A stretch of 64,000 nucleotides of DNA from a bacterium (GTDB taxonomy: Bacteria; Patescibacteriota; Patescibacteriia; UBA9934; GWF2-40-263): contig JAJYIV010000001.1 in assembly GCA_021789915.1 (NCBI GenBank), positions 375 to 64,374 on the forward strand, written 5' to 3'. Positions 14,131 to 59,300 of this stretch are shown here, piece by piece. Each line of letters starts with the position of its first letter. Positions within the stretch are counted from its first letter, which is position 1. The position numbers were made by a program, and so were the translations under genes. Under the pieces are notes generated by a model that worked only from the letters and a program-made list of their open reading frames with translations, did not search any database and was not told the DNA's origin.

Positions 14131-14149
14131 AAACCCAACCACCCCGACG

Positions 14150-14395: not shown

Positions 14396-14396
14396 G

Positions 14397-15527: not shown

Positions 15528-17022
<1,495 letters not shown>

Positions 17023-17045
17023 AGCGCGCAGACGATACCAAAAGC

Positions 17046-17080
17046 GTCGCAAAGAAAAAAGCCCCGACCGATGCGATCGG
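17046..17080 (-). terminator. rho-independent terminator (minus strand) between the hypothetical gene and miaB
   Basis: Minus-strand read CCTGACCGATCGCATCGGTCGGGGC + TTTTTT. Confidence 0.5.
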
Positions 17081-17638: not shown

Positions 17639-17675
17639 CCTGCGCCGGCATTCGCCTCTTGCGCGGAAAAGTGCT

Positions 17676-19493: not shown

Positions 19494-19626
19494 TTCGCAG
19501 GTTCCGGACCCGTCCCTTCCGGAAATACGTACGGCGTGGTCCGAGCATATCCGGACGGGAGAATTCCAAAGACGCGAAAAAGGGGTTCACTGTAGGCATA
19601 TTATTTTAGAATAATACCCTTTTTCT

Positions 19627-20640
19627 ATGCCCTTCGCTCTCATCGCCATCCTCGTCGTTTTGTTCGCGGGCGGCGGCGTCACGGCCGCTGCAAACCAGGC
19701 CAAGCCGGGCGACGCGCTGTACGGCTACAAGCTGGCGATCAACGAGCCGGTCGAGACGGCCCTCGCCGGATCGGACGCCGTCAAGGCCGCCCTTGAAGCC
19801 GCGCTCGCGAACCGGCGCCTGGCCGAAGCGGAATCGACGGCGGCCGCCGGCACGCTGACGCCGGCGCTGCAACAGGAAATCCAGGCCAACTTTCAAGCCC
19901 GCGTGGCGGCGGTCCAGCAGCTCGTCCACGCGCTCCAATTCCAAAAGAACTTCCAGGCCGCGTCGACCATCGCCGCGGATCTCGGCACGTCGCTCAGCGC
20001 GCATGCGCAGATACTCGCGCAGCTCTCCGCGAAGGCGGACAAGCCACAGGAAAAAACGTCGCTGGAGGATTTGCAGAGCGCCGTCAAGCAGGAAAGCGAG
20101 CGCGCGGACGCCCAGGACGCGAGCGTCCAGGAGGACGCGTCAAAACAGGCGCCGCCGGACGTGCAGGCCGCCGCGCTCGGCCGCCAAAAATCGGCGCAGA
20201 ACAAAATCGACGAAGTGCAGAAGTACCTCGACACCGTGAAGGACAGGATCGGCGCGGACGCGTATGCCAAGGCTTCCGCGCAGCTCGACGTGGCGAAGGC
20301 CTCCATGAAGGACGGGCAGGCCAAGCTTGACGCGAAGGATGACGCGGGAGCCTTTTCCCTGTTCTCCGCCGCCAGCCGCCAGGCGCAGTCCGCCCAGGAG
20401 ATGGCCCAGGCGAAGGACGAGCTGAACGTGGAGATTGACCTGGAGGAGCAGGGCGAATCCGGCGCGGAGGCGCAACAGGAAACGACGGAGGGCACAAAAG
20501 AACAGGAGCAGAAACAGCAGCAGAAACAGGAGATGGAGAAGCAGCAGGAACAGGAGAAGCAGCCGCAGGAAGCGGCGCCTGAAAAAAGCGGCGCGTCAGC
20601 CGACGTGAACGTGCGCGCCAACGTGCAGCTGGGCGAGTAA
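19627..20640 (+). CDS. DUF5667-domain protein (N-terminal TM anchor, PGDALYGYK motif)
   Basis: 337 aa. N-terminal TM helix. Conserved PGD.LY..K motif typical of DUF5667 proteins. Q/E/K-rich C-terminus. AT-rich promoter-like region 19590-19626. Confidence 0.7.
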   Translation: MPFALIAILVVLFAGGGVTAAANQAKPGDALYGYKLAINEPVETALAGSDAVKAALEAALANRRLAEAESTAAAGTLTPALQQEIQANFQARVAAVQQLVHALQFQKNFQAASTIAADLGTSLSAHAQILAQLSAKADKPQEKTSLEDLQSAVKQESERADAQDASVQEDASKQAPPDVQAAALGRQKSAQNKIDEVQKYLDTVKDRIGADAYAKASAQLDVAKASMKDGQAKLDAKDDAGAFSLFSAASRQAQSAQEMAQAKDELNVEIDLEEQGESGAEAQQETTEGTKEQEQKQQQKQEMEKQQEQEKQPQEAAPEKSGASADVNVRANVQLGE

Positions 20641-32642: not shown

Positions 32643-35072
32643 CATCATAGCATGGAATCGCGACGCAAGCACGTCGCGCAGCTTTCGCATCTCCGTCTCG
32701 ACGTCATCCGAAGACAGCGTGCGGTCGGCGGCACGGAAGACGAGATGCAGGGCGAGCGACTTCTGCCCCGCAGGCACGCCTTCGCCCTCGTACACGTCGA
32801 ACAGCGCGACCTCGTGCAGCAGCGGCGACGCCTCCCGCAGCGCCTGTTCGACGCGGGCGTATTCGATCTTGCGGTCCACGACGAACGCAAGATCGCGCTT
32901 GCTCTCCGGGAACGCCGGGATGGGCCGGTACGCCGTCGACGAGGACGCGTGGCGCACCAGACGGTCGAACGACGCGTCGACCAGGAACGCCGGCTGCTCG
33001 AGCCCGAACGCCGCCGCCGTGGCGCGGGACACCTGCCCGATCATGCCGACATGCTCGTGCTCGCCGATCCACACGGCCGCCGAGCGCATGCGGTGCCAGC
33101 GCGGATCGTCCGTGCCCGAGGCCAGGCGTTCCATCCGCAGCGTGCGGATGCCGAGCGCCGCGGCGAGGCGCTCCAGGGCGCCCTTCGCGCGGCGGAATCC
33201 AACGTCCCCGTCGACGCCGGCGAAGGCCATCGCGAGGCGCAGCGTCTGCGCCGGCAATTCGTCCTTCGACGGCTCATACGCGGGCGCCAGCTCGAACAAA
33301 TCCAGGCGCGGCTGACGGCGCTGGTTGGCCTCGACGACCGTGAGCAGCGACGGGACGAGCGACGGGCGCATGAATTCCTGGTCCGCCGACAGCGGGTTGT
33401 CGATCTTCACGGCCAGATCCGTCGACAGGCCGTAGCGTTCCAATTGCCTGGCCGAGACGAAACTGGAGTTATAGCTCTCCGTCAAGCCCGCGCCGGCCAG
33501 GATCTCCTTCGTCCGGCGCTCCCAGCCGATGAGCGGATCCGCCGGCGCGGCGGCGGCCGTGCTGCACGGCAGCGTGGACGGAATATGGGCGTAGCCGTAC
33601 AGACGGGCGATCTCCTCGACGAAGTCGCGCGGACCTTCGATGTCGTGGTCGCGCCAATACGGCACGGTGCAGCGATAGACGCGGCCTCTCCCTTTTTCCA
33701 AGGGGGAGTCGGATGGGGTTGCCGGCGCCAGCGCGAACCCGAGGCGCTTCAGGAGCGCGACCTGTTCCTTGGCGGGGATTTCCACGCCTATGAGCGCCGA
33801 GGCCTTCTGCGGATCAAACGGGAAGGCGGGCGTCTGATACGGCTTGGTTTCGATCGAGGAAACCTGCGAGGCCACGCGCGCGCCGGCCACGGTGCGCAGC
33901 AATTCGACCGCGCGGGCCAGCGCCGGGCCGGCCGCTTGCGCGGACAGGCCCTTTTCAAACAGCGACGACGCGTCGGTTTGCAGGTTGAGCGCGCGGGCCG
34001 TTCGGCGGATGCTCACCGGATCGAAGACGGCCGACTCGAGCACGACGCGCGTCGTCGCGGCGGTCGTGCCGCTCGCCCGGCCGCCGATCACGCCGGCGAT
34101 CGCCGCGGGCTTGTCGCGGTCGGCGATCACGAGCATGTCCGGCGTGAGCGCGTGGGTTTTCCCGTCCAGAGCCTCGATCGATTCCCCCGCCCGCGCGCGG
34201 CGCACGAAGATGCCGGCTCCGGCGAGCGCACCCGCGTCGAAGGCGTGCAGCGGATGGCCGAGCTCGAGCAGGACGTAGTTCGTAACGTCCACGACGTTGT
34301 TGATCGGCGCATGGCCCGCCAAGAGCAGCGCGCGCTGCAGCCACCACGGCGACGGGCCGACCTTGACGTGATCCAGCACCACGGCCTCGTACTTGGGCGC
34401 GAGCTCCGGCGCGTCCACCGTGACCGGCAGCGTCGGCACGTCGGCCGGGACGGCCGGCAGGCGCTTGGGCTTCCACGTGAACTTCCCGCCCACGGCGGCG
34501 AACCCTTCGCGCGCCTGGCCCACGATGCTCATGCCATCCGGGCGGTTGCCCGTGACTTCGATGTCCAGGATCACGTCGTTCAACCCCAAGGCGTCCGCGA
34601 GCGGCGTGCCCGCCTCGGCGCGCGTGAGCTTCGTCAGATCCCAAATCGGGCGCTCGCCTTCGAGCGCCAGGTCGAAGCCCAGCTCTTCGGGCGCGCAAAT
34701 CATGCCATGGCTCTTCTGTCCGCGGATTTCCGTCTCCTGCAGCACGACCGGCTCCCCTTCCCCGTGCCAGCGCACGGACGATCCCGGCAGGGCGACGGCG
34801 ACGCGCTGATTTTTTTTGAGATTGGTGCCGCCGCACACGATCTGCACCGCGGCCGTGCCGATGTCCACCCGGCAGACGCGCAGCTTGTCGGCGTTGGGAT
34901 GCTTCTCGACGGAATCAATCACGCCGACGACGATGTGGTCGAAGCGCGCGGCGACGTCTTCCATGCGCTCGACGCCGTTGCCGGCGGCCGTCGTGCGGCG
35001 CGCGAACTCCTCGACGGTCAGATCCGTCTTCAGGTATTCGCGGATCCAGTTGTAGGAGGCGAGGAGGTTCAT
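32634..35072 (-). CDS. pheT: phenylalanine--tRNA ligase beta subunit
   Basis: About 812 aa. N-terminal tRNA-binding domain, B3/B4, B5 (FDP..), and FDX-ACB C-terminus. ATGA overlap with the four-helix-bundle gene. Confidence 0.9.
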   Translation of the reverse strand: MNLLASYNWIREYLKTDLTVEEFARRTTAAGNGVERMEDVAARFDHIVVGVIDSVEKHPNADKLRVCRVDIGTAAVQIVCGGTNLKKNQRVAVALPGSSVRWHGEGEPVVLQETEIRGQKSHGMICAPEELGFDLALEGERPIWDLTKLTRAEAGTPLADALGLNDVILDIEVTGNRPDGMSIVGQAREGFAAVGGKFTWKPKRLPAVPADVPTLPVTVDAPELAPKYEAVVLDHVKVGPSPWWLQRALLLAGHAPINNVVDVTNYVLLELGHPLHAFDAGALAGAGIFVRRARAGESIEALDGKTHALTPDMLVIADRDKPAAIAGVIGGRASGTTAATTRVVLESAVFDPVSIRRTARALNLQTDASSLFEKGLSAQAAGPALARAVELLRTVAGARVASQVSSIETKPYQTPAFPFDPQKASALIGVEIPAKEQVALLKRLGFALAPATPSDSPLEKGRGRVYRCTVPYWRDHDIEGPRDFVEEIARLYGYAHIPSTLPCSTAAAAPADPLIGWERRTKEILAGAGLTESYNSSFVSARQLERYGLSTDLAVKIDNPLSADQEFMRPSLVPSLLTVVEANQRRQPRLDLFELAPAYEPSKDELPAQTLRLAMAFAGVDGDVGFRRAKGALERLAAALGIRTLRMERLASGTDDPRWHRMRSAAVWIGEHEHVGMIGQVSRATAAAFGLEQPAFLVDASFDRLVRHASSSTAYRPIPAFPESKRDLAFVVDRKIEYARVEQALREASPLLHEVALFDVYEGEGVPAGQKSLALHLVFRAADRTLSSDDVETEMRKLRDVLASRFHAMMRT

Positions 35073-35461
35073 AGGGGGCGGCATTCGGCGCTCGGCGCTC
35101 GGCGCTCGGATTCAAGAGAAGCAATGAGTCGATTGAGCATGCGCATCACGTCGTCGAGCAATCGAACGGAAGGTTCACCGTCCGACGTTTGGATGAAAGC
35201 AAGTCGTGTCGCGATGAGCAATTGCGTTTCGAGTTCCCCACCGGATCCAAAGGCGATAAGGAGAAACCTACGAAATTCAAAAGGGCTTCCCCGAAGTTTC
35301 CCCTCCGCGATATTTGAAGGAATGGAAATGGCCGACCGACGCATCTGGCTTGCCAAGCCGTATCGTTCCTCTTGGGGGAAAGACGATGTCACGCGATAAA
35401 TCTCCAAAGACAAGGCAACGGACTTCTGCCATACGTCCAAATCCTTGTACGTGTTCCCCAT
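35069..35461 (-). CDS. four-helix-bundle protein (23S rRNA intervening-sequence protein family) inserted between pheS and pheT
   Basis: Start at MGNTYKDLDVWQKS. Family signature DL.VWQKS...YR....FP.EE.Y.L.SQ.RRSA.SI..NIAEG. Local GC about 50%. Confidence 0.7.
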   Translation of the reverse strand: MGNTYKDLDVWQKSVALSLEIYRVTSSFPQEERYGLASQMRRSAISIPSNIAEGKLRGSPFEFRRFLLIAFGSGGELETQLLIATRLAFIQTSDGEPSVRLLDDVMRMLNRLIASLESERRAPSAECRPL

Positions 35462-35495
35462 ACCGAGAGCCGAAAGCCGAGTGCCGAGCGCCTTT

Positions 35496-36551
35496 TTAAA
35501 ACTGTTCGACGAACCGCAAATCATCCCGATACAAGATGCGGATGTCGTCGATCGCCATGCCCTGCCGCATGGTCAACGTACGCTCCACGCCCCAGCCGAA
35601 GGCGAAGCCGGTGTAGACGTCCGGATCCACGCCGCCGGACTTCAGCACGTTCGGATGCACCATGCCGGCGCCGCCGAGCTCCAGCCAGCCGGACTTGCAC
35701 ACGCGGCAGGAACCCCCCCGCCCGCCGCACAGGTCGCAGGAAATGTCGATCTCGAACGACGGTTCGGTAAAACGGAAATGATGAGGCCGCAGGCGCGCGG
35801 CACGCGCGGGGCCGAAATACGCGCGCACGAAATGCTCGAGCACGCCCTTCAGGTCGCCGATCGTCAGGTTCTTGTCCACCATCAATCCTTCAAACTGATG
35901 GAACATCGGCGTGTGCGTCACATCCGACTGGCGGCGGTACACGCGGTTGATGTTGATGAGGCGCAGCGGCAAGACGCCCTTCTCCAGCGCGCGCACCTGC
36001 ACGTTGGTCGTGTGCGGCGTCAGCACGACCTTGCCCTTGGCGCCCTGCGCGGATTGCGTCCTTGTCTCCGCCACGAAGAACGTCTCCCAATCGTCCCGCG
36101 CGGGGTGGTCCTTGGGCATGTTGAGCGCCTCGAACGCGTACCAATCCCAATCGATCTCCGGCGCGCGTACGCGCGTGAACCCAACCGTGGAAAAAATATC
36201 CGTGATCTCGGCGATCGCGGCCGATACGGGATGCAGATGCCCGGCCGCGGGCCACTGCCCGGGCTCCGTGACGTCGATCCACTCGCGCTCCTCGCGCGCG
36301 GCCGATTCGCGCTCGTCCAATGCGGCGCGCGCGGCGGCGAATGCCCGTTCCATCTCCGCCTTTGCCTCATTGGCGGCGCGCCCCGCGGCGGCCCGCTCGG
36401 CCTCCGGCTGCGCGGCGACTTCCGCCATCAGGGCGCCGAGCCTGCCCTTGCGTCCCAAAAACGCGATGCGCACGGCCTCCAGAGCCGGGGCATCCTGCGC
36501 GCCGGCGAGCGCGGCGCGGAACTCCTTCTTCGCATCCTCGAACGAGGGCAT
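35496..36551 (-). CDS. pheS: phenylalanine--tRNA ligase alpha subunit
   Basis: Start at MPSFEDAKKEFRAAL. Class II motifs (FRFTEPSFEID, GWGVER..M). The 717-aa ORF extends antisense into rseP and is not used. Confidence 0.9.
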   Translation of the reverse strand: MPSFEDAKKEFRAALAGAQDAPALEAVRIAFLGRKGRLGALMAEVAAQPEAERAAAGRAANEAKAEMERAFAAARAALDERESAAREEREWIDVTEPGQWPAAGHLHPVSAAIAEITDIFSTVGFTRVRAPEIDWDWYAFEALNMPKDHPARDDWETFFVAETRTQSAQGAKGKVVLTPHTTNVQVRALEKGVLPLRLININRVYRRQSDVTHTPMFHQFEGLMVDKNLTIGDLKGVLEHFVRAYFGPARAARLRPHHFRFTEPSFEIDISCDLCGGRGGSCRVCKSGWLELGGAGMVHPNVLKSGGVDPDVYTGFAFGWGVERTLTMRQGMAIDDIRILYRDDLRFVEQF

Positions 36552-37729: not shown

Positions 37730-38491
37730 CTAGAGGCGGCGGGAGACGGCCTCGAAGGTGTGGGCCAGGATGACGCGCTGGTCGGCATCCGGGTAGTCGG
37801 TGACGGTGCGGTAGCCCCAGCCGTCGCGGAACCACCGATAGGACGTGGACGGCGGATTGCGCTTGGTGCGCATCACATAGACGGCGAGGTCGCGCGCCGC
37901 AAAGCCCGCATGGCGGGCGGCAAAGAGCCGCTTGCCGAGCCCCTGTCTCTGGAATTCGGGACGCAGGAAGATCTCGTCCTGGTAGGCGAAGCGCTCGACG
38001 CCCGGGTACATGGCCCGGAGCGTCGCGGCAACGTCCGGCGCGCACACGTGGGCCGCGAGCCCGTGGTTGAGGTGCTCGTCCAGGCCCTCGGGCGTGGCCG
38101 AGAATCCCCAGCAACCGCCGATGACCGCCTCGCCCTGGCGCAGCACGGCGCACACGGCGTCGGGACGGGCCAGCTCTTGGCGCATGTCGGCCAGGATCTG
38201 AGAGATCGGCCAGAAGTCGGCGACCTCGCCGCCGCAGTCGGAACAGCGGCCATCCGGCGGCGCGTCGAGGAAATTCCACTTCTTCGGCGCGCCGGGTCGC
38301 GAGCAAGCGTGGCAGATCTTGCCCTCGCTCCAGGCTCGGTCGGTGCCGAAGACAAGCTGGTAGCACTTGGCGATGGGCCGTGCCTCGCGGTCGAACATGG
38401 GGTCGTCCGGGGAAACCTCGAAGAGGCTGGCGTCAATCGGCAGGGCCGATGACGCCGCGGGATGGTGATCCGTGCCTGCATGCGCATCCAT
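37730..38491 (-). CDS. GNAT-like N-acetyltransferase with Cys-rich (zinc-ribbon-like) insertion
   Basis: Start at MDAHAGTD after AGGAG. CHAC..x19..CSDC cluster. Acetyl-CoA-binding-like QRQGLGKRLF. Confidence 0.5.
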   Translation of the reverse strand: MDAHAGTDHHPAASSALPIDASLFEVSPDDPMFDREARPIAKCYQLVFGTDRAWSEGKICHACSRPGAPKKWNFLDAPPDGRCSDCGGEVADFWPISQILADMRQELARPDAVCAVLRQGEAVIGGCWGFSATPEGLDEHLNHGLAAHVCAPDVAATLRAMYPGVERFAYQDEIFLRPEFQRQGLGKRLFAARHAGFAARDLAVYVMRTKRNPPSTSYRWFRDGWGYRTVTDYPDADQRVILAHTFEAVSRRL

Positions 38492-38593
38492 GGAAGGATC
38501 TCCTGAAAACGGGCTCCAAAACGGTAACAACGGAACGGGGCGGCTGTCAAACTGACGAGACCGAACGAAAAGCGCGGCCAGGACGGCGGCGTC

Positions 38594-39361
38594 TTACGGC
38601 TCGCGGTGCCTGGCGACGTCGGCGGCGTCCATCAGGCGCATCTTGTAGCCAGTGAGTCCGGCGAATTTCCCGAACAGCAGGGCGACGAAGCGCTCGCCCT
38701 GGCGGCTGCGGGCCGGTCGGAAGTCCCGCAGCTTGGAAGGATCCGTAACTTCCTGCGGATCGATGGTCGCGTACACGTGGAAGAACCTCTTGCCTTTCGG
38801 CAGCGCCGTCTTGCGGCGCAATGCTTTCTCCTGGGCGGGGATCAGATCCAGATTTTTCAAGAAGACCTTCAACACGCGCTGAAGCTTCCGCTGCGTCTTT
38901 CCGAACGACGTCTTTGTCCCGGATTCAACTTCGAGCCCGCGCGGAACGAATTGAGTGAGTGGACCCGTGGGCTTCCCGGAAGGCCAGTACAGGATATCCG
39001 CAACTGGAAACGCGGACGCGAGGGCCAAGGTGCGCGGCGTGAGTTTCATCAGGATCAAAATCATGCGGTCATTCGCCCGTGTCTCGTGCAAATCGACGAC
39101 ATAACGATACGGCTTGAATTGGCGCATGAGCTCGAACGCCCGGCGCTCTTCGTACGCCTTTCCTTTTGCCCTGCCGGGGGCGGACCGGTTCAAGTCCGCT
39201 TCGAGGTAGCGCTTGCCGCCGGCCAGCGCCTTCGGATTGCCGATGACGTAATCAAAGAGCGCGGCCGCAGGGGTCAAGGACAGGCGTTCCATCGTTTCTT
39301 TGCCGATCGGTTCGTCCCCATGCGTGCAGGCGACGAAGCAGACCGATGTACGTCTCGGCAT
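38594..39361 (-). CDS. succinylglutamate desuccinylase/aspartoacylase (AstE/AspA) family zinc hydrolase
   Basis: HGDEP ... E.DLNR ... DLHE motifs. Confidence 0.6.
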   Translation of the reverse strand: MPRRTSVCFVACTHGDEPIGKETMERLSLTPAAALFDYVIGNPKALAGGKRYLEADLNRSAPGRAKGKAYEERRAFELMRQFKPYRYVVDLHETRANDRMILILMKLTPRTLALASAFPVADILYWPSGKPTGPLTQFVPRGLEVESGTKTSFGKTQRKLQRVLKVFLKNLDLIPAQEKALRRKTALPKGKRFFHVYATIDPQEVTDPSKLRDFRPARSRQGERFVALLFGKFAGLTGYKMRLMDAADVARHREP

Positions 39362-39442
39362 ATAGATAAATGCAACGATGTCCGCATGATAAATCAAGTG
39401 ACGGAAAAAGCCGATACTCCAACATATTACAAAAAGAAAACC

Positions 39443-39462
39443 GGGTATTCACCCGGTTAGTT
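39443..39462 (-). terminator. rho-independent terminator
   Basis: AACCGGGTGAATACCCGGTT + T-run on the minus strand, in an AT-rich gap. Confidence 0.6.
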
Positions 39463-39998
39463 CATGGGTTGAGCGCCAGGTACCAGTACTCATGATACGT
39501 ACCGGGAGTGGATGAAGTAACCCGAATTCCGGTGCGGAGAAAGCCTGCCCGCTCGTTGACCGCAATGATGCGTTTGTTGTCTGCCCGCATACGTGTCAAG
39601 CAGATTGCGTTAGAAAGGTGGCAACGCACATGGACGATTCCTTCCGACTTCAAGCGACCTGCGATTCCGCGACCTTGGGCCTGAGGATCCACGATGGTAT
39701 CGCGAATCCATACGATTGGGCGCGCATCGAACCGATCTTGGACAAACTGGGCAAGTTTGTCCCCACGTTCGGCTGCAAGTTCACCGAGAGACGGCGTATC
39801 CCACCAACTCGCTCCAAGCAATTGCCCGCCGTCTTCGGCGACGATACAGCAGAAGCCTGGTTTTGTGCTTGCAACCACCCACCGGCGCAGAAGTTCTACC
39901 TCACCCAAGGCTTCATACCAAGGAGGACCCGCAAACGCCCTCCCCATGATGCCTTGAATGACCGAACCTTCGTTGGGATTGAATGAGCGAATGTTCAT
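39462..39998 (-). CDS. GNAT family N-acetyltransferase
   Basis: 178 aa. QGRGIAGRL motif. Confidence 0.65.
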   Translation of the reverse strand: MNIRSFNPNEGSVIQGIMGRAFAGPPWYEALGEVELLRRWVVASTKPGFCCIVAEDGGQLLGASWWDTPSLGELAAERGDKLAQFVQDRFDARPIVWIRDTIVDPQAQGRGIAGRLKSEGIVHVRCHLSNAICLTRMRADNKRIIAVNERAGFLRTGIRVTSSTPGTYHEYWYLALNP

Positions 39999-40460
39999 CA
40001 GACGTGTCCTCTCTTTGGACGCATATGCGTCGCTGGAACTTCAGGCCGCCACCTCACGCATGGCCATCTCGACTGCCTCCTCCGGGGTCGCGTACGGATG
40101 ATGTTGCTCGGATCGCCCATGATCGCCTCGACCGAACCGTCGCTCGTGAGACGACGCAGGATGCGATCGCGCAACTCGAGAAATTCCTCGTCCGGCGACG
40201 TTCCGGTCGCGAACGTTTGCACGTGGCCGTTGCCGAAGAGCCGCACAACCGCGCCGCGTTCCGCCACGATCGGCCCATTCATGCCGAAAGGTCGTAATGG
40301 CGCAACAGAACGGGCACGGGGCTGTCGGAATTGAGCCCGACGACGTGTCCGCGTTCTCTGGCCCGCCGAACCGCTGCGGCCATCCCGTCGTCCGTGTACT
40401 GGTACTGAACGTTAATGAGGGTTTTGTCGAGATCAAAAAGGACAAGCATCCGTGTTTCCT
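39998..40460 (-). pseudogene. degenerate HAD-like hydrolase remnant (in-frame TGA plus frameshift)
   Basis: Segment MLVLFDLDKTLINVQ..GLNSDSPV (HAD motifs I/II) ends at a TGA that is in frame with MNGPIVAERG.... A further frame shift leads to ..YATPEEAVEMAMREVAA. Confidence 0.35.
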
Positions 40461-40473
40461 CCTGCAGAGAAGC

Positions 40474-41139
40474 CTACGGAACATCATGGGATGCGTCAAA
40501 CGGCAAGAGAAGGATTTCGCGAACATTCGAGACGCGGAAATCCGCGGATGTTTTCTCTTCTCCCACGCGAATCGTTCTTAATCCAGCCGCCCGCGCGAGG
40601 ATGATATCGCTTTCCTCCTGGTCGCCGACGGAATAGACGTCACCGGGCGGACCCCCAAGCGCATCGACGACCTCGCGAAAAGCGCCAATGGACGGCTTGC
40701 GCACGTCCGGCTCGCCCGTGAAGAGCGCGTCGCGCACTAACTCGTACACGTTCAAGAAGCGCAAGGCGGCCTCGGCCCAGACGCGAGGTGCCTCGGTAAG
40801 CACGGCGGCACGTCCTCTGAGGGCGGACAAAACCATACGCGCGTCGTCGTTCGGCTCAATGTACGTTGCCGGCGGCACGTTCCAGGTTGCCGCGAAATAC
40901 CGTCCCCGGTCGACATTGAATTCTTTCTCCACTCCCAGACTCACGTGGCCGCGATAATCGCGCTTCAACCGATCATACGTTTCCTGAACTCGATCCGCAG
41001 GCACCCCCAGCTCGTCTTTCAAAAACGCCAAAATATTCCGTCTGATGTCGGCATAAAATGCCGAGATGGCGAAGGTCGGCCCGCCCTTATAGCGGTACAG
41101 CGTCCCATCCAGGTCGAAAATAAATTTTCGTTCGGACAT
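40474..41139 (-). CDS. HAD-superfamily hydrolase
   Basis: FDLDGTLY motif I. SVGDQEESDI (motif IV-like). Confidence 0.7.
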   Translation of the reverse strand: MSERKFIFDLDGTLYRYKGGPTFAISAFYADIRRNILAFLKDELGVPADRVQETYDRLKRDYRGHVSLGVEKEFNVDRGRYFAATWNVPPATYIEPNDDARMVLSALRGRAAVLTEAPRVWAEAALRFLNVYELVRDALFTGEPDVRKPSIGAFREVVDALGGPPGDVYSVGDQEESDIILARAAGLRTIRVGEEKTSADFRVSNVREILLLPFDASHDVP

Positions 41140-41160
41140 ACGAATGAAAAACGGATCGTG

Positions 41161-42081
41161 CTAGACGATCCGGCAGAGGGATGCTTCGAACCGCTCGCGC
41201 ATGAGATCGTGCAGCCATGCGCGTTCGATTGCCAAGCAGTAATCACAACGACAGGCAGCGTAGACGGAGTAGGCATGCGCGCGACACAGGTCGAACATGA
41301 ACTCGTTGAATGCGCCTTTCTCAACCAAGCCCGCGATGATGTCTTGGAATCTTTCCGCAAGAGCGAACGGGGGAAGACCCTTCCGCTTGCCCTCCAGTTC
41401 CTTCCGCTCGAGACTGACCAGGAAGGCAGCGGCATCGATGGCGGCGGAACCGAAGGCCGGCGGGCCGGCGGAAGCCCCGGGCATACGCGTACGAGGATCG
41501 ATGAGGCGCACGTCCCCGTTTGACCCGCACATCACGTTGGGAGCAGACAGGTCGCGATGGCACACCCCAGGGACGAATGCCGCTCGCCGATGACATATGT
41601 CCGCGTCTGGGATGAACGAGGATCCGGCCCTCATCGCATTGTGCGAAATGGCCTCGATGATCTCCTCGAGCGTCGCGTCTACGGACGACGAAAGCATGTC
41701 CGACGGAACACGCAGGGCTCCGAACCGCGCAAGGATCTCTCCCACACGTTCGACGACGGCCGATGGTTCGATGGCACAATAACGCGTGGGGTTCGCGAGT
41801 ACGGCCTCGAACGTGGAGTCGCCAAGGTACTCGAGCTCGGTCACGAAGGAACCGTCGACCTCACCCAAGTCGCGGAATCGCGGAAGACACAGGGCATGGG
41901 CAGGACCCAGCTGCTTCTCAAGCCAGCAGAGCAGCTCCGACTCGGAACGGTCTGGAGCGAACTTGAGAATGCCAGTGATTCTGAGCGTTGCGGAGGCACC
42001 GGTTTCACTCAACCGTTCCGTGCGCGCGAGCGCGAGGCCCGCCGTCTTGCGAATCGCATCAGGGGCAATTTCGTGAGGCAT
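41161..42081 (-). CDS. APH/ChoK-like small-molecule kinase (phosphotransferase enzyme family)
   Basis: Catalytic loop VCHRDLSAPNVM and Mg-binding IDP. Confidence 0.6.
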   Translation of the reverse strand: MPHEIAPDAIRKTAGLALARTERLSETGASATLRITGILKFAPDRSESELLCWLEKQLGPAHALCLPRFRDLGEVDGSFVTELEYLGDSTFEAVLANPTRYCAIEPSAVVERVGEILARFGALRVPSDMLSSSVDATLEEIIEAISHNAMRAGSSFIPDADICHRRAAFVPGVCHRDLSAPNVMCGSNGDVRLIDPRTRMPGASAGPPAFGSAAIDAAAFLVSLERKELEGKRKGLPPFALAERFQDIIAGLVEKGAFNEFMFDLCRAHAYSVYAACRCDYCLAIERAWLHDLMRERFEASLCRIV

Positions 42082-42148
42082 GCCAGGATTCTCCTCTCAA
42101 AAAGAGCCGGCTCCAACCTAACGGGATGCCGGCTCTTTGTCAACCAAC

Positions 42149-42685
42149 TTATGGTTGGCTTGCCTCGCGGATCACCATCTCAACGGCCTCCTCCGGGGTC
42201 GCGGCCGCAAGCACGGGGCGGCGCTTGCGGGCGTCGATGAATTCGCCGGCCAACTTTTCGGACCAACCGCCGACCCCCGTGAGGGCGACCATGGGGATGT
42301 TCGACTGATAGGCGATGGCGAGCTCCGTGAGCGTGCCGGAGCCGCCGGAAATCGCGATGATCGCGTCGCACGAGTTCACGAGCACGAATTCACGCCCGCC
42401 GCCGCGTTCAAGACCCGTCACGACAACGACATCGGTATTCCCTTCCTTGTCCCAAATGTCCTTGCCCTTGCCGTAGGTGACGCCGATCGTGAGGCCGCCT
42501 TTGCGTTTCGCCCCGCGCGCGGCGGCCGTCGACAGCGAATCATAATCCTTCTCGGCACCGTAGACGGTAACGGCACCCCGTTCGGCGAGCAGTTCGCCCA
42601 CGCGTTCGGCGAGTGACGCCACGCCGTCAGAATAGTTCAGGTCGGCGGCGGAACCCATGACTCCGATTTGAAGCTTGCGTTTCAT
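42149..42685 (-). CDS. LOG/TIGR00725-family (SLOG) Rossmann protein
   Basis: 178 aa. GVMGSA...GGGSGTLTELA pattern. Confidence 0.7.
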   Translation of the reverse strand: MKRKLQIGVMGSAADLNYSDGVASLAERVGELLAERGAVTVYGAEKDYDSLSTAAARGAKRKGGLTIGVTYGKGKDIWDKEGNTDVVVVTGLERGGGREFVLVNSCDAIIAISGGSGTLTELAIAYQSNIPMVALTGVGGWSEKLAGEFIDARKRRPVLAAATPEEAVEMVIREASQP

Positions 42686-42690
42686 AGTGG

Positions 42691-44223
42691 TTATTTGAGA
42701 GGCCCCGCGGCATGCTCGACGGCCTCGAGCAAGGTATCAGGCACAAGTCGCATCAGCGCCTCGATGTCATAGTACAGGATTCGGTCTTTCTCGAGGAACG
42801 GGACATGCTGTCGAATGAGCCGATAGGCGGCGTCCGTGCCGCGACCGAGCGCGAGCGGTTTGCGGAAATCGGCGCCTTGGGCGGCGCAAAGCAGTTCGAT
42901 GGCCGCCACTTTTTTGGCATTGGATACGATCTCGGCGGCCTGGCGCGCGGCGATCGTCCCCATGCTCACGTGATCCTCCTGGTTCGCCGAGGTCGGGATC
43001 GAATCCACGGAGGCCGGATGCGCCAGCACCTTGTTTTCGGACACGAGGGCGGCGGCGACATATTGCGGGATCATGAAGCCGGAGGACAGCCCCGCCTGTT
43101 CCGACGGGACGAGAAACGCGGGCAAGCCCTCCGAGAGATGCGCATCGACCAGGCGCGCGACGCGGCGTTCCGAAATGTTCGCCAGTTCGCTCACGGCGAT
43201 TTTCAAGAAATCCATCGCCTGGGCGATCGGCTCGCCGTGGAATTGTCCGGCGCTGATGGCAATGTCGTCATCCGGAAACAGCAACGGGTTGTCTGTGACG
43301 GCGTTCAACTCGCGCTCAAGAACCGTCCGTACGTACGCGATGCCGTCGCGCGAGGCCCCGTGGACCTGCGGCGCGCAGCGCAGCGAATAGGCATCCTGCA
43401 CGCGGCCACAGCCGCGATGCGACTCGATGATCGCCGAGTCCGCGCATAACCGGCGCACGTTCTCCGCGACCTGCGCCTGACCTGGGTGCGGACGCAGGGC
43501 GTGCACGCGCGGATCGCAGGGAGCGACGGACCCCATCATGACCTCCAGCGACATGGCATACGCGACGTCAAAGACATTCGCCAACTGCGCCGCGTCGTGC
43601 GCGGCCAAGGCGCCGATCGCCGTTTGGACGGCCGTCCCGTTGTTCAACGCCAATCCTTCCTTCGATTGCAACACGACCGTGCCGAGGCCCTTCTCGCGCA
43701 AGACCTGCGCGGCGGGACGGCGGCGGCCCTCTACGATCACTTCGCCCTCGCCCATCAGCACCAGCATGATGTGCGACAAAGGGGCCAAGTCACCGGAAGA
43801 TCCGACGGAACCCTGCGAAGGAACGAATGGATAGATGTCGTAATTGAGCAAATCCACCAACCGGTCGGCGACGGCCGGACGCACGCCGGAATGTCCGCGC
43901 AGCAGGCCGTTGACGCGCAAGACGATGGCCGCGCGCACCGCCGCTTCCGGCAATGGCGCTCCCACGCCGGTCGCATGGGAACGGATGAGATTGGCTTGCA
44001 GCGTCTCCGTCTGATCCGGCGAAATGACGACGTTCTTGAACTGGCCGCACCCGGTCGTCACGCCGTAGACCACCTGTTTCTCGGCCACGAGACGATCCAC
44101 GAACGCGCGTGCTTTTTCCAAAGCGCCGCGGGCCGACGGATCAATGGAAACCCGTTCACGGCCGCGCGCCACGCGAACGACCTCCTCGATCGTCAGGCCA
44201 TTTCCCTTCAACATGATGGACAT
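42691..44223 (-). CDS. aromatic amino acid/histidine ammonia-lyase (MIO-dependent HAL/PAL family)
   Basis: 511 aa. MIO region GSVGSSGDLAPLSH (Ser-Ser-Gly where Ala-Ser-Gly is canonical). Lyase_aromatic fold throughout. Confidence 0.85.
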   Translation of the reverse strand: MSIMLKGNGLTIEEVVRVARGRERVSIDPSARGALEKARAFVDRLVAEKQVVYGVTTGCGQFKNVVISPDQTETLQANLIRSHATGVGAPLPEAAVRAAIVLRVNGLLRGHSGVRPAVADRLVDLLNYDIYPFVPSQGSVGSSGDLAPLSHIMLVLMGEGEVIVEGRRRPAAQVLREKGLGTVVLQSKEGLALNNGTAVQTAIGALAAHDAAQLANVFDVAYAMSLEVMMGSVAPCDPRVHALRPHPGQAQVAENVRRLCADSAIIESHRGCGRVQDAYSLRCAPQVHGASRDGIAYVRTVLERELNAVTDNPLLFPDDDIAISAGQFHGEPIAQAMDFLKIAVSELANISERRVARLVDAHLSEGLPAFLVPSEQAGLSSGFMIPQYVAAALVSENKVLAHPASVDSIPTSANQEDHVSMGTIAARQAAEIVSNAKKVAAIELLCAAQGADFRKPLALGRGTDAAYRLIRQHVPFLEKDRILYYDIEALMRLVPDTLLEAVEHAAGPLK

Positions 44224-44348
44224 ACGAAGGAATTCATGAGAATCTCGCTTCAACCTTCCACCCAACTATGGATGTCGTCAACCCAATCTCCCTTGACAAC
44301 GAGTTCCCTCTTCCGGAAGATGATCGCGGCCCTTTCCAGGAGGAAACC

Positions 44349-45749
44349 ATGAACAGCCAAAACGGCCTGATCAAGCCCGCCCTGCCGGGGGGATTCCAAG
44401 ACTTCGGTCCGCGCGAAATGCTCGCGCGCGAACGCATGCTGCGCGCCATCGAGCGGATCTACCGCTCCTTCGGCTTCGTGCCGTTGCAGACGTCCATCGG
44501 CCAGCGGCGCGAGGTGCTGACCGGCGGCAAGCCCGCCTCCATGCGGATGTGGGACCTGCGCGTGGATGCGTCGCGAGACACGACGGACGAGGCGCAGCGG
44601 GTAACCGCGCGCTTCGACCTCACCGTGCCGCTCGCGCGCTACGTCGCGGAGAACATGGGAAGCATCCGCTTCCCGTTCCGCCGCTTCGAGTCGGGCGACG
44701 TGTTCCGTGGTGAATCCCCGCAGAAGGGGCGTTACTGCGAATTCCGCCAGTTCGACGCCGACATCGTGGGGGCCCCGACGGGCCCGGCGGACGCGGAGAT
44801 CATGCTCTGCATGACCTCGGTGATGCGGGCGCTCGGCATCGAGCGCTTCCTCATCAAGGTCAACGACCGGAAGGTCCTGAACGGCTTCGCCGCCCGCGTG
44901 GGCTTCGAGCCGGGGAGCGACCAGGCGGCCGCCCTGCTGCGCGTCATGGACAAGGTCGACAAGATCGGCTTGGACGGCGTCTTGGCCGAGTTGGCGGGAA
45001 AGGCCGCATCTGATGAGGGTTCCTTCGCATTTGGCCCGGAGCAGCTGGAGGCCGTTCGCGGCTTCATGACGCTGACCGACGGCCTCGCTGACAACGCGCA
45101 GCGGCTGGCCAGGCTCAAGGGCTACTTCGCCGAAGGCGGCGTCGGCGCCGAGGGCGTGACCGAGCTCGAGACGATCGCGTCGCTGCTCTCGGCCGGCGGC
45201 ATGCCGTCCGACCGCTGGACGGTGGATCCGTCCATCGCGCGAGGACTCGGGTATTACACCGGTCCCGTGTTCGAGACCGTCCTGCTCGACGCGCCGAAAT
45301 TCGGTTCCGTCTACTCGGGCGGCCGCTTCGACGATCTCGTGGCCCGCTTCACGGGCATGTCGCTGCCGGCCGTGGGCGCCTCCGTCGGCGTGGACCGGCT
45401 CTTCGCCGCCCTGCAGGAGCTGAAGGCCGTCTCCGCCACCGAGCCGGACGTCGACGCCTTCATCATCCGTATGGACGAGGCGCTGATGCCGGAGTACTTC
45501 GCCCTGGCGGCCGAGCTGCGCGCCAACGGCCTCCGGGCCGAGATCGGCATGAGCCACCAGGACATGTCGACCAAGGCCCAGATGGCCACGGCCCTCGACC
45601 GGCGCGCCCCGTTCATCCTGTTCCTCGGCGGCAACGAGATCGCTGCCGGCACGGTGCAGGTGAAGGACACGGCCACGCGCCGGCAGACGCAAGTGCCGCG
45701 CACCGCCTTGGCGCAGGAGCTCTTGACGCGGCTGGACCGCACGGCCTAA
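44349..45749 (+). CDS. hisS: histidine--tRNA ligase
   Basis: Start MNSQNGLIKP after AGGAGG. Class II motif 2 (FRRFESGDVFRGESPQKGRYCEFRQFDADIVG) and motif 3 (GGRFDDL). Anticodon-binding domain present. Confidence 0.85.
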   Translation: MNSQNGLIKPALPGGFQDFGPREMLARERMLRAIERIYRSFGFVPLQTSIGQRREVLTGGKPASMRMWDLRVDASRDTTDEAQRVTARFDLTVPLARYVAENMGSIRFPFRRFESGDVFRGESPQKGRYCEFRQFDADIVGAPTGPADAEIMLCMTSVMRALGIERFLIKVNDRKVLNGFAARVGFEPGSDQAAALLRVMDKVDKIGLDGVLAELAGKAASDEGSFAFGPEQLEAVRGFMTLTDGLADNAQRLARLKGYFAEGGVGAEGVTELETIASLLSAGGMPSDRWTVDPSIARGLGYYTGPVFETVLLDAPKFGSVYSGGRFDDLVARFTGMSLPAVGASVGVDRLFAALQELKAVSATEPDVDAFIIRMDEALMPEYFALAAELRANGLRAEIGMSHQDMSTKAQMATALDRRAPFILFLGGNEIAAGTVQVKDTATRRQTQVPRTALAQELLTRLDRTA

Positions 45750-45763: not shown

Positions 45764-45841
45764 GTGCCCGTAGCTCAGCTGGTTCAGAGCATCGGATTGT
45801 GACTCCGAGGGTCATGGGTTCGAACCCCATCGGGCACACCA
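45764..45841 (+). tRNA. tRNA-His (anticodon GTG), encoded CCA, A73, no encoded G-1
   Basis: Cloverleaf by hand: acceptor GTGCCCG/CGGGCAC, D-arm GCTC-AGCTGGTTC-AGAGC, anticodon arm TCGGA-TTGTGAC-TCCGA, T-arm ATGGG-TTCGAAC-CCCAT, then A-CCA. The residue 5' of position 1 is C. Confidence 0.85.
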
Positions 45842-56331: not shown

Positions 56332-59300
56332 CTACGATTTCGGATTCAAGGCCGTGCGCGTGGCCGCGTCCAGCGCGCCCGTGACGGGCAGCCGCCAGCC
56401 GGCCTGCAATGCCTTCAGCGCGGCGCGGGTCGCCCCGCCGAAGTAGCCGTAGGCGATGCCCTTCGGGATCGTGAGCAGATGCTTGGCGACCAGGAATTGC
56501 TGCAGGGCCGTCACGTCGTCGCCCTTCGAGCCGACCGCAAGGTTCTTGAGATACGCGTGGACGGCTTTGGCGACGGGCGAGGCCGGAGGAGCCGCGGGAG
56601 CGGCGGCAGCTGCCTTCGGATTCAAGGCCGTGCGCGTGGCCGCGTCCAGCGCGCCCGTGACGGGCAGCCGCCAGCCGGCCTGCAATGCCTTCAATGCGTC
56701 GCGCGTCAGCGCGCCGAAGCGGCCGAAGGCCACGCCCTTGGGCATCTTGAGCAGGCCCTTGGCGACCAGGAATTGCTGCAGGGCCGTCACGTCATCGCCG
56801 GTGGAACCGACCGCCAGGTTCTTCAGATACGCGTGAAGCGCCTTGGCGACGGGCTGCGCCGGCGTGGCCGGGGTGGCCGGGGTCGCAGGCGTGGCCGGCG
56901 TCGTCGATGTGGCGGGCGTGGCCGGGGTTGCAGGGGTTGCCGGCGTCGCGGGCGTTGTCGCCGCTGCTGCAGCGACGATGGAGAAGACGCCCGAGATGCC
57001 CGTCGCCTGCGTCACGCCGCTCGCATCGCGGCACTCGATTTTCACCCGGGCCGACGACGTCGCCGCGCTCGGCACCGTCCACGCATAGGATCCCGTATTC
57101 GCCACGCCGGCGGACGCGATGAGCGTGTAGGCGCTGCCGTCCGCCGAGTAGGAGAGCAGGACATCGTGGATGTCCGAGCCGGAGGACGTCCAGACGATGG
57201 ATTGGGCGGCGCCTTCCGTGAGCGAAGCGCCCGCGGCCGGCATGCTTACCGTGCAGGAATCCGTCGCCGGCGCGACATACCCGCCGCCGCCTCCGCTCGC
57301 GCCGCCGGAAGACGGCGTCCGCACGGACGCGGAAGCCGATGCGGCGGATTCGGCGCTGCCGTTCATCGAGGTGATCTCGTAGTAGTACGTCGTGCCGCCC
57401 ACGACCGTCGTGTCCGCGTAGGTCGTCGTCGCGCCGGAAGAAACAGTGGGCTCGCTGCCGACACGGCTGAAGGTCCCCGTGGGGGACGTGCTGCGGTAGA
57501 TGTCGTAGCCGGAGGCGCCGGTGATGGCTCCCCACGAGAGGTTCACCTGCGTGGAGCCGGTCGTCGTCGGCGTGGCAAGGGTCGGCGCCGAAAGAGACCC
57601 CGTGTCGCCGCTGGTCGGCGCATACGTCGACAAGTGGTCGGTGACGGCCGCGATGGTGATGGAGCCGACATTCCCCAGGTTGGCATCCACCGTCTTGCCG
57701 GAGCTGCCGTCCAGGATGCCGCCGCTCGCGTCCTTGTAGATCACGGCCGACGGGAGCGTCGTCCAGTCGCCGCTGGCGTCGTCCTGATACGACATCTTCA
57801 AGGCATCGGCCGCCGTCTTCGTATTGATGCCGGAAGCGGAAAGATCCGACGACGTGAACGTCTTCTCGACGGTGCCGGTGCCGCTCGGCATGGCGTCGAG
57901 CGAATTGTTGTCCGAATCCTTGGCGGTGATGTCCACGGCGGAAGGCACGGTGGAGCTGCCGATCGCCGACTTCAGCACGGTGGCCGTGCCCGTGGAGAGG
58001 ACGCCGCTCGTCTCGTCGCTCTTCACGCTGCCGCTCGACGTCGAGGAGCCGTAGGCGCCGCCGTTGATGACGAGGCTCGCGTCCGCCGAAGCGTCCTTGA
58101 GGACGCCGCCGGAAGCGGGCGCGAACGGCATGGAGGCGGGCGACGTCGCCGAGACGGTCGAGGAGAGGGTGACGGTATTGCCCGTTGCGGAGGGCGCGCT
58201 GCCGGACGTCGTGACCAGGCTGGAAAGCGCCGAGGATTGGTAGCCGTCCGCCGATCCGGAAACCTTCCACGTGCCGTCGGTCACGTGCAGCGTGTAGGCG
58301 CCGGTGGAATCGGTCTGCGCGCTGACGAATCCGCCGCCCAACTTGCTCGCCTGCACGGTGGCGTTCGCGATCGGATTGCCGGAACCGTCAACTGCCGTCC
58401 CCGAAATGGTGTCCGAGGCGATCGGCAGAGTCACACCCAAGGTCGGATTCTCCGCGCTGGTCTTATGCGTCGCGTCGACCGTGACGGACGCGGGAGCGAA
58501 GGCATAGCCCGGCTTGGTGACCGCCATCGTGTACGTCCCGTCTGCCAGATTGGCGGCGTAATTGCCGGAGGCGTCGGTCTGCACGTCCGTGCGGACGCCG
58601 TCGGACGCCGTGAAGGCCACCTGTGCATTCGACACGGCGGCCGGCGTTCCCGCATTGTCATCCACCGTTCCGCTGACGCTCTCAACGCTTGCAGGCGTCG
58701 TCAGCGTCAAGGAGATAGGGCTGCTGGCGACGGTGAGGAGGCCCGCCGCATACCCGCTGCCGCTGAAATCAGACGCGGCGACGGTCATGCCGGGAATGTC
58801 CGCCTGCACGAGATAGGTGCCGGCGGGCAGCGACGTCGTGAAGGTGTTGTTGCCGGACGTCACGTCCTTCAGCCGGAGGAAGGACTGCTGCGCGGCGCCG
58901 CTGCCGCTCGAGACGAAGCTCACCAGGCCGCTCGGGACCTTCGTGATGCCGGTGAGGGCGATCGTGAGCGTAACCGTCACGGCCCCGCTGCCGGAGACCG
59001 CGAAGTTCTTGCCGGACTGATCCGCCGACGCGTCGAAGGCGGCGAGCGGCGGGAGCTGGCCGACGCCCGGCAGGGTGGCCGTCAGAGTGTAGCAGTTCGT
59101 TCCGGAGGTCGTGCAGGCCGGCGCCTTGAAGGAATAGTTGCCGCTGCTGTCCGTTGCCGCCTGGTTGAACGTGCCGTTCGTGCCGACCAGCGAAACGAAC
59201 GCGCCCGGGACGGCGGAGCCGTTCGTCACGGATCCGGAGATCGTCACGAACGTTCCGGTGCCCGTCTGGGACGGAGCGAAATTGACGCCCGTCTGGCCCG

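Follow-up and report, generated by a model that had tools for sequence, protein, structure and literature searches.

A conserved histidine-centred gene neighbourhood beside tRNA-His and hisS in bacteria of the candidate phyla radiation

Introduction

The stretch of DNA considered here, hereafter the window, comprises 64,000 nucleotides of contig JAJYIV010000001.1 (assembly GCA_021789915.1) from a bacterium of the Patescibacteria, or candidate phyla radiation (CPR), whose Uhrbacteria-like genome was put together from metagenomic reads. Its minus strand carries a run of nine open reading frames (ORFs) at positions 37730–44223, headed by the gene of a histidine ammonia-lyase (HAL). This gene set occupies a conserved slot, bounded on one side by tRNA-His and hisS, the gene of histidyl-tRNA synthetase (HisRS), and on the other by rseP-pheS-pheT. 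As a conserved arrangement of CPR bacteria centred on histidine, the locus has not been described before; it contains two orphan enzyme families. Probably, at a rough probability of 0.6, the window region represents the Uhrbacteria-type version of a locus for handling histidine, maintained by CPR bacteria next to tRNA-His and hisS. Bacteria of this radiation have a minimal metabolism and are thought to take amino acids and nucleotides from other organisms.

An earlier note, made from the letters of this DNA, had listed the nine consecutive minus-strand genes together with their likely domains. All nine ORFs are present, and assignments from Pfam, NCBIfam and predicted folds agree with its domains. 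What changes is the reading of the set: the note took it for an accessory enzyme cluster, and it is no free-standing island but lies in the conserved slot just described. The closest named homologues of the HAL and of the kinase encoded two genes downstream belong to Candidatus Uhrbacteria (Patescibacteria/Parcubacteria group), and a protein identical to the window HAL is encoded on contig DAHWTR010000002.1 (GCA_027328745.1).

Conservation of the locus in CPR bacteria

The window was compared with 17 CPR loci (designated below by L numbers), and 155 non-CPR HAL loci served as background. The background loci came from genome and metagenome scans for HAL that were swamped by the universal NQEDHVSM pattern, and they are mostly distant non-CPR sequences. 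The obvious known counterpart is the Hut pathway of histidine utilization (hutH-hutU-hutI-hutG/F), which begins with the same enzyme, a HutH-type ammonia-lyase bearing all the substrate-binding residues. The CPR enzyme, however, keeps different company: it pairs with hisS/tRNA-His and with acyl-amino-acid and ribotide enzymes, not with a nearby hutU, hutI or hutG. When the window and the CPR loci were searched by tblastn with HutU, HutI and HutG at distances of up to 10 kb from HAL, hutU/hutI proved to lie near HAL in none of the 17 CPR loci, vs 97 of the 155 non-CPR loci (63%). The earlier note had named scattered partner genes and a lyase lying next to hutU/hutI as the mark of ordinary histidine catabolism. 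CPR genomes show the reverse: time and again HAL has these families as its neighbours, in varied orders and orientations. In L045, L064, L073, L081, L146 and L159, hisS is located ~4 kb downstream of HAL with no hutU or hutI nearby; the records of the first four are labelled Cloacimonadota, and in L045 genes for a TPR protein and TruA separate HAL from hisS.

Every CPR locus with enough flanking sequence has hisS adjacent to HAL, be it divergent, in tandem, or in the order HAL then hisS paralogue. tRNA-His in turn adjoins hisS in the window and in 9/9 CPR loci that hold hisS with enough flank. The most similar loci are L003, L006/L007 and L011, whose HALs are 76–78% identical to that of the window. 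In L003 and L006/L007, tRNA-His/hisS diverges from a HAL-SLOG-kinase-HAD1-HAD2 series, followed by a variable stretch and then by rseP-pheS-pheT. L011 shares the HAL-led order, and its contig starts 560 bp upstream of HAL, leaving hisS/tRNA-His uncovered. The variable stretch encodes a phosphoribosyltransferase (PRTase)-like protein, a GNAT acetyltransferase and an ArgE/DapE-type M20 deacylase in L006/L007, and a PRTase-like protein plus GNATs in L011, where an AstE homologue (57% identical) is also found between SLOG and kinase. The L011 record (CAYRYG010000048.1) is titled “uncultured Gammaproteobacteria”; it contains an Uhrbacteria-type locus (HAL 78%, SLOG 86% and kinase 60% identical) and was probably mis-binned or mislabelled. 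The hisS orthologues of L003, L006 and L092 are 62–67% identical to the window gene product.

Further afield the arrangement loosens and the gene families persist. HAL lies beside hisS/tRNA-His with a CntK/HisR-like racemase, GNATs and an M20 deacylase in L004 and L008, and with a zinc-ribbon GNAT (GNAT-Zn), an AstE homologue and HisG (193.8 bits, cut-off 75.75) in L092. L174 has an M20-GNATZn-hisS-tRNAHis operon divergent from HAL, and L102, L103 and L111 have hisS then HAL in tandem. L009 and L010 share a PRTase-like protein, a uridine-phosphorylase-like enzyme and a HAD protein, with SLOG added in L010 and a second HisRS in L009. In L009, the genes for the PRTase-like protein, the HAD protein and the phosphorylase stand between two HisRS genes (11657–13000 and 15899–17350), both of which pass the hisS equivalog. 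Identity to the window HisRS is 43% for the copy that adjoins tRNA-His and 34% for the one that adjoins HAL. In L042, from Saccharibacteria, a HAL with Ser-Ser-Gly at its active site is followed by AstE and GNAT-Zn homologues, and in L091 and L093, which were fetched independently of HAL, M20-GNATZn is followed by a HAL gene truncated by the contig end. Finally L176, fetched through the most divergent kinase, reads hisS-kinase-HAD1, then SLOG and a PRTase-like gene on the opposite strand, then HAL. Its HAL is only 40.6% identical to that of the window while its SLOG is 83.5% identical, so that, judged by these identities, the putative ribotide module (SLOG, kinase and HAD proteins) persists across a change of HAL lineage. 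Across L003, L006, L011 and L176, this module stays with HAL and hisS through rearrangements.

A similar picture could arise from inherited synteny without shared function, with unrelated housekeeping and scavenging genes collecting in a recombination-prone slot between hisS and rseP-pheST within one branch of Patescibacteria. The flanks are indeed housekeeping genes (hisS, tRNA-His, rseP, pheS, pheT, PMM, LemA and ClpB), slot content differs between genomes, and the linked loci all come from CPR bacteria; moreover, Cloacimonadota too have hisS ~4 kb from HAL, with the TPR and TruA genes intervening. Mere descent sits poorly, however, with an association that outlasts changes of order and orientation (L009, L010, L011, L174 and L176), that tolerates non-orthologous exchange of the deacylase (AstE vs M20), and that in L176 retains an SLOG still ~83% identical after HAL has been swapped for a ~40%-identical lineage. 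Nor does it readily account for the pairing of GNAT-Zn with HAL in Saccharibacteria and Uhrbacteria-like genomes alike, or for the additional histidine-specific genes in the slot (HisG and the histidine-racemase-like protein). As an account of the whole locus, inherited synteny is therefore judged unlikely, although it deserves to be kept in view.

The histidine ammonia-lyase and its Ser-Ser-Gly motif

The lead gene of the run, hutH (42691–44223, minus strand), was described in the earlier note as an aromatic amino-acid ammonia-lyase. Taken in the Phe/Tyr sense, this assignment gives way to histidine on two counts, model score and substrate-binding residues. The protein scores 671.8 bits against the hutH equivalog TIGR01225 (cut-off 539.15), 688.7 bits against PRK09367 (cut-off 524) and 672 bits against Pfam Lyase_aromatic (PF00221). 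Aligned to Pseudomonas putida HAL (1gkm), it keeps Y53, H83, N195, Q277, Y280, R283, F329 and E414, which we take to be the histidine-specific active-site residues of that structure. Because the equivalog cut-off is passed and the substrate-binding residues are kept, the window lyase is, on sequence grounds, a bona fide histidine ammonia-lyase. Two other identities were considered and rejected: a Phe/Tyr lyase or aminomutase, all models of which score below cut-off while the histidine-specific residues are kept, and an ergothionase (only 229 bits, vs 390–428 for HALs).

HALs carry a 4-methylideneimidazole-5-one (MIO) group formed from an Ala-Ser-Gly tripeptide. The window enzyme reads GSVGSSGDLAPL at this position, in agreement with the family pattern GSVGxSGDLAPL, retaining the cyclising Ser-Gly and replacing the first MIO residue, Ala, by Ser. 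The earlier note was right that the motif is present, and its suggestion that it is unusual does not hold: of the 120 best HAL homologues, 73 carry Ser-Ser-Gly, as do all but one of the closest 49. So do HALs from hutU/hutI operons of unrelated bacteria (L026, L058, L062 from Fusobacterium, L097 and L137), and a CPR relative whose HAL is 72% identical (L092) has Ala-Ser-Gly. Since the variant is common among homologues, including the HALs of ordinary hut operons, it is neither an error nor special; an assembly error or a rare motif is ruled out by its lineage-typical and widespread occurrence. As far as these alignments go, Ser-Ser-Gly is a natural, common and evidently tolerated version of the MIO motif, and of minor interest. 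Searches of the literature for MIO motifs of the Ser-Ser-Gly type and for CPR HALs yielded nothing useful, and no structure of a Ser-Ser-Gly-type HAL was identifiable in the PDB, where many entries list the chromophore as a modified residue.

Acyltransferases and deacylases

The distal end of the run is occupied by putative enzymes of acyl-amino-acid chemistry. The last gene, GNAT-Zn (37730–38491, minus strand, within an ORF at 37730–38530), encodes a GNAT with an inserted zinc ribbon, and the CHAC...CSDC motif that the earlier note had picked out is plainly visible in the translation of the ORF. The family is without a Pfam or NCBIfam model, and the protein matches Pfam GNAT models weakly, below their cut-offs (22 vs 27 and 19.1 vs 20.7 bits). 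An exhaustive HMMER search returned 391 cluster representatives at E ≤ 1e-3 and 185 at E ≤ 1e-10. At least 90% of the representatives retain C60, C63 and C86, and about half retain the fourth cysteine. No informative domain fusion was found among these relatives, and a metagenome scan with the family alignment gave zero confirmed matches. In the AlphaFold model (pLDDT 90, pTM 0.83), short β-hairpins formed by residues 58–92 are inserted into a GNAT fold with over 460 matches among GNAT structures (E ≤ 1e-3), and in the acyl-CoA loop, QRQGLG, Q181 and G186 are invariant in close homologues. By its predicted structure, GNAT-Zn is a member of the GNAT-fold acyltransferases; its best structural neighbours are arylalkylamine and agmatine N-acetyltransferases and other single-domain GNATs.

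In its genomic setting, GNAT-Zn adjoins HAL in 6/6 contexts seen, and each time a deacylase is present too: AstE in the window, L042 and L092, and M20 in L091, L093 and L174, the last being the M20-GNATZn-hisS operon, with a 4-nt gap. None of the 155 background HAL loci contains GNAT-Zn. The window deacylase (38594–39361, minus strand; 255 aa, in an ORF at 38594–39397 whose likely start is the ATG at 39361) is a zinc enzyme of the AstE/AspA family, scoring 59 bits against PF24827 (AstE_AspA_cat; cut-off 25), and four homologues share its zinc ligands and catalytic Glu (H14, E17, H92 and E146) without exception. Homologues adjoin HAL in L011, L042 and L092. The protein scores below the equivalogs of the family, reaching 72.1 bits against PRK02259 (cut-off 180) and 21.8 against TIGR03242, succinylglutamate desuccinylase (cut-off 305). 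AstE and M20 proteins both come from families that hydrolyse N-acetyl or N-succinyl amino acids. The remaining acetyltransferase of the window, GNAT2 (39462–39998, minus strand), passes PF00583 (26.3 bits, cut-off 20.7); no orthologue was found in the related loci, and the gene is a compositional outlier.

Putative enzymes of ribotides and ribosides

Between HAL and the acyl genes stands a second group of enzymes that would act on phosphorylated ribosides. The SLOG protein (42149–42685, minus strand), whose gene lies 5 nt downstream of HAL, is a LOG-like protein of SLOG cluster 4 (PF18306, 101 bits, cut-off 26). It is the most conserved member of the set, being 80–88% identical in L003, L006, L011 and L176. 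Among solved structures it comes closest to 1rcu, 6y01 and the molybdenum cofactor (Moco) carrier protein 2iz5, and TM1055 and the Moco carrier protein are its relatives; a literature search on SLOG cluster 4 produced nothing useful. With LOG/PpnN nucleosidases and the salvage sets in which they occur, the locus shares the SLOG fold and a PGGxGTxxE-like motif (here SGGSGTLTE, with an invariant Glu), a nucleotidase-like HAD and a sugar- or riboside-type kinase, joined in relatives by a PRTase-like protein and a nucleoside phosphorylase. It differs from them in that the window protein probably falls outside the LOG family proper, scoring below the cut-offs of PF03641 (23.9 vs 27 bits), TIGR00730 (35.6 vs 96) and TIGR00725 (88 vs 107), and in that HAL and hisS accompany the set.

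The kinase (41161–42081, minus strand) scores 21.6 bits against the aminoglycoside phosphotransferase (APH) model PF01636, just under the cut-off of 23.2. Its predicted structure (pLDDT 91.6, pTM 0.90) gives best Foldseek matches, at probability 1.00, to APHs, 5-methylthioribose (MTR) kinase (2pu8) and glucosamine kinase (6hwl), with protein kinases matching poorly. Together with the sequence motifs, the model confirms an APH-fold small-molecule kinase. The family is narrow: 19 homologues are detectable, all of the same Cys-rich type, with the catalytic-loop motif HRDLSxxN (of the H-x-D-x4-N type), IDP with its metal-binding Asp, C174, C266, C277, C279 and C282 as invariants. The five cysteines, among them a C-terminal CxCxxC, point to a metal or redox site, which would be unusual among APH-fold kinases. 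A search with PADLOC for an anti-phage defence system gave only a 15.7-bit match to the catalytic loop of this protein, and such a system was set aside.

HAD1 (40474–41139, minus strand) is a HAD-IA phosphatase (PF00702, 60.9 bits) with orthologues of 55–75% identity in L003, L006, L011 and L176. It is closest to the pyrimidine 5′-nucleotidases (TIGR01993, 59.6 bits, below cut-off). The PRTase-like proteins of the related loci bear a phosphoribosyl pyrophosphate (PRPP) loop, which reads VLVDDVVFSG in L006/L007 and outside of which they have no significant match in PDB or NCBIfam, and the uridine-phosphorylase-like enzymes of L009 and L010 score 219 and 201 bits.

Such a set could also be read as nucleoside or ribose salvage combined with ammonia supply, that is, as ordinary purine/pyrimidine recycling in which HAL is only a source of ammonia and the acyl enzymes serve to recover N-blocked amino acids. 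Reliance on salvage is established for CPR bacteria, and the nearness of HAD1 to pyrimidine 5′-nucleotidases, the phosphorylases of L009 and L010, the PRPP loop of the PRTase-like proteins and the resemblance of the kinase to ribose and sugar kinases such as MTR kinase all point the same way. Recycling of this kind nevertheless leaves unexplained why the genes stay with HAL and hisS when the order is rearranged, and how one and the same module came to take on a HAL of another lineage. The proteins themselves fit it imperfectly as well, in that SLOG cluster-4 proteins are not established nucleotide hydrolases (as the sub-threshold PF03641 and TIGR00725 scores reflect), and a kinase family of 19 homologues is far too narrow for a general salvage enzyme. 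We regard salvage as rather improbable as the purpose of the whole locus.

Proposed function

The reading that we prefer, a histidine-handling locus kept beside tRNA-His and hisS, can be cast as a mechanism in which hisS/tRNA-His and the HAL-led operon would be transcribed divergently from abutting promoters, and HAL would convert surplus free L-histidine to urocanate and ammonia. In a first module, the zinc-ribbon GNAT would acylate the α-amino group of an amino acid, most plausibly histidine, thereby hiding it from both HAL and HisRS, and the AstE/AspA deacylase (or, in other genomes, the ArgE/DapE-type M20 enzyme) would free it again. The resulting N-acyl cycle may act as a buffer between use (HisRS), storage (N-acyl-histidine) and disposal (HAL). 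A second module, made up of the SLOG/LOG-like protein, the APH-fold kinase and the two HADs (HAD1 and HAD2), would shuttle a compound between free base, riboside and riboside 5′-phosphate; in relatives it is joined by the PRTase-like protein, and in some by a uridine-phosphorylase-like enzyme or HisG.

An N-acyl-histidine cycle is proposed because both of the deacylase families that replace one another here take N-acetyl or N-succinyl amino acids as substrates, because the other specific genes of the slot are histidine-related (HisRS, tRNA-His, HAL, HisG and the histidine-racemase-like protein), and because vertebrates possess an analogous GNAT/M20 acetylhistidine cycle, in which acetylhistidine synthase (a GNAT; HisAT/NAT16) is paired with an anserinase-type M20 deacetylase (PMC12219266). 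The CPR loci resemble this cycle in combining a GNAT with a metallo-deacylase, of M20 type in several of them, in a histidine context. They differ from it in that HisAT is a double GNAT, whereas GNAT-Zn is a single GNAT with a zinc-ribbon insert and without specific similarity to HisAT, and in that the window deacylase is of AstE/AspA type. Likewise, the acyl-protection cycles ArgA/ArgE, DapD/DapE and AstA/AstE combine an N-acyltransferase with an ArgE/DapE- or AstE-family deacylase; the CPR proteins, however, fall below the equivalog cut-offs and occur without the side-chain-modifying enzymes of those pathways.

The base handled by the second module may be a histidine-derived imidazole, which is the most novel option, or belong to ordinary nucleotide salvage, the conservative one. 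Taken to its limit, the former would have the CPR HAL feed a lineage-specific imidazole metabolism rather than start catabolism: the PRTase-like enzyme would attach a phosphoribosyl group to urocanate or histidine, and the Cys-rich kinase, the HADs and SLOG would pass the compound back and forth between ribotide, riboside and base, with the N-acyl-histidine buffer gating the supply to HisRS. This extension is a long shot.

Several observations weigh against a histidine-handling locus. It is gene context alone that suggests histidine as the substrate of the acyl pair: the nearest structures to GNAT-Zn are generic small-molecule and N-terminal acetyltransferases (TM score about 0.5–0.6, 10–14% identity), which are uninformative on histidine, and the M20 and AstE proteins fall under every equivalog cut-off. 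Most loci were fetched via HAL, which biases the co-occurrence with HAL, the exceptions being L091–L093 (fetched with GNAT-Zn) and L176 (with the kinase). The search that found no hutU, hutI or hutG covered only the 64-kb window and the 17 CPR loci. All linked loci belong to Patescibacteria, so that inherited synteny explains part of the pattern, and since unrelated genes lie between hisS and HAL in Cloacimonadota, lineage synteny alone can yield their proximity. Last, two members of the ribotide module have been lost from the window, and the module may be dispensable or decaying.

Transcription signals and organization of the window copy

On the plus strand, hisS (44349–45749) lies in an ORF open from 44268, with its likely start at ATG 44349 after an AGGAGG, and is directly followed by tRNA-His (GTG; 45764–45841, plus strand), called by ARAGORN and scoring 70.8 bits against the Rfam tRNA model. 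An Rfam scan of the region for riboswitches or T-boxes returned this tRNA as the sole match. Within the 125-bp spacer between hisS and HAL, two back-to-back −35-like hexamers, TTGTCAAG-N10-TTGACGAC, are found at 44274–44299. The pair, TGTCAA-N(4-13)-TTGACR, recurs in the hisS/HAL spacers of L003, L006, L092 and L174, and half of it in L004; 17 nt past the conserved pair these spacers read nAAGRT. A consensus promoter scan made no call at 44274–44299. The recurring hexamers may represent divergent, possibly coupled, candidate promoters for hisS and the HAL-led operon.

At the other end, the earlier note's terminator near 39443–39462 corresponds to a terminator-like hairpin and T-run immediately 3′ of the GNAT2 stop codon (39458–39439, minus strand), situated in a 100-bp gap of 39% GC. 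It is the probable end of the HAL-led transcription unit; terminator-like sites as a class are not enriched across the region (7 vs 6.9 in shuffled sequence).

Mosaic history

HAD2 is the decayed HAD gene that the earlier note had recognized. Short HAD fragments in two different frames at 39998–40449 resolve, by tblastn and DNA alignment to the intact L003 and L006 genes, into the N-terminal ~118 codons of a Cof-type HAD pseudogene (40088–40449, minus strand). Relative to the 265–268-aa orthologues, one nucleotide is missing near codon 52, and homology ends after about codon 118, at approximately position 40088, with nothing of the gene beyond. Exactly at this point begins a 41-nt direct repeat (40052–40092) that is 85% identical to the 3′ end of the SLOG gene (42163–42203). 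Its translation identifies the 3′-end remnant of a second SLOG gene (40041–40092, minus strand), reading ...ATPEEAVEMAMREVAA*. GNAT2, the terminator-like hairpin, AstE and GNAT-Zn follow in that order, and the PRTase-like gene of the relatives is absent. The gene order and the HAD2 frameshift are identical in a 13-kb contig of the independent Logan assembly, which also encodes the identical lyase and may share the same sample.

The SLOG remnant at the HAD2 breakpoint is, from its position and sequence, a recombination scar. As read from the alignments, recombination removed the PRTase-like gene together with the 3′ half of HAD2 and put in their place a segment holding the SLOG 3′ end, GNAT2, AstE and GNAT-Zn; the ribotide module of the window is therefore incomplete. 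The simplest reading is that two variants of the locus recombined, one of which had its acyl genes right behind SLOG, a position similar to that of AstE in L011. The earlier note had proposed separately acquired units, and this holds in part: the GNAT2/AstE/GNAT-Zn portion does replace the genes of relatives, with a scar and low GC content at third codon positions (GC3). The exchange took place within a conserved slot, however, and does not amount to a foreign island. GC3 is 0.56 in GNAT2, 0.68 in HAD1, 0.71 in the kinase, 0.77 in AstE, 0.78 in SLOG, 0.79 in HAL and 0.87 in GNAT-Zn, against 0.86–0.92 in pheS, pheT, rseP and hisS. In L003, positions 8475–20240 are strongly mosaic in GC3 (hisS 0.75, kinase 0.63 and HAD2 0.67 vs 0.46–0.53 for HAL, HAD1, rseP and pheST), which suggests allele exchange between lineages of differing GC content.

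A GC3 below that of neighbouring genes might also betray a specialised-metabolite or self-resistance cluster, for instance for a nucleoside- or aminoacyl-nucleoside-like compound, with the kinase/phosphatase and acetylase/deacetylase pairs serving to tailor or protect the product. Nucleoside-antibiotic pathways do contain combinations of kinase and phosphatase, GNAT and deacylase, and PRTase, and the second HisRS inside the L009 cluster recalls resistance copies of target synthetases. A search of the nine products with Pfam and NCBIfam, however, revealed no core scaffold-forming enzyme. The HAL is an ordinary HutH-type enzyme, gene content is inconstant, the window has one pseudogene and one deleted member, and the site is a conserved housekeeping one in many small CPR genomes. 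A specialised-metabolite origin is accordingly highly improbable, and the earlier note's idea of a pathway that makes or detoxifies an acylated or phosphorylated aromatic or nucleoside-like metabolite finds no support, a core biosynthetic enzyme and a defence-system match both being absent.

Other features of the window

Two further genes outside the run deserve mention. Between pheT and pheS, and overlapping both, lies a gene of the 23S rRNA-intervening-sequence-protein family (PF05635, 121 bits; 35069–35524, minus strand), with a GC3 of 0.58 vs 0.86–0.89 in its neighbours. It has no counterpart between pheS and pheT of L003, which suggests that it was inserted recently. The other is an ORF of 2552 aa or more (56332–63990, minus strand) that reaches the window end and encodes a giant surface protein with six carboxypeptidase-regulatory-like, three Big_5 and two peptidoglycan-binding domains.

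Implications

The locus provides testable functional contexts for two orphan families, the zinc-ribbon GNAT (~390 clusters) and the Cys-rich APH-fold kinase. If the imidazole extension were true, it would add new enzyme activities for three uncharacterised protein families. Recurring across Uhrbacteria-, Magasanikbacteria- and Saccharibacteria-like genomes, the tie of tRNA-His and HisRS to a stand-alone HAL, an acyl pair and ribotide enzymes would represent an undescribed way of managing one amino acid.

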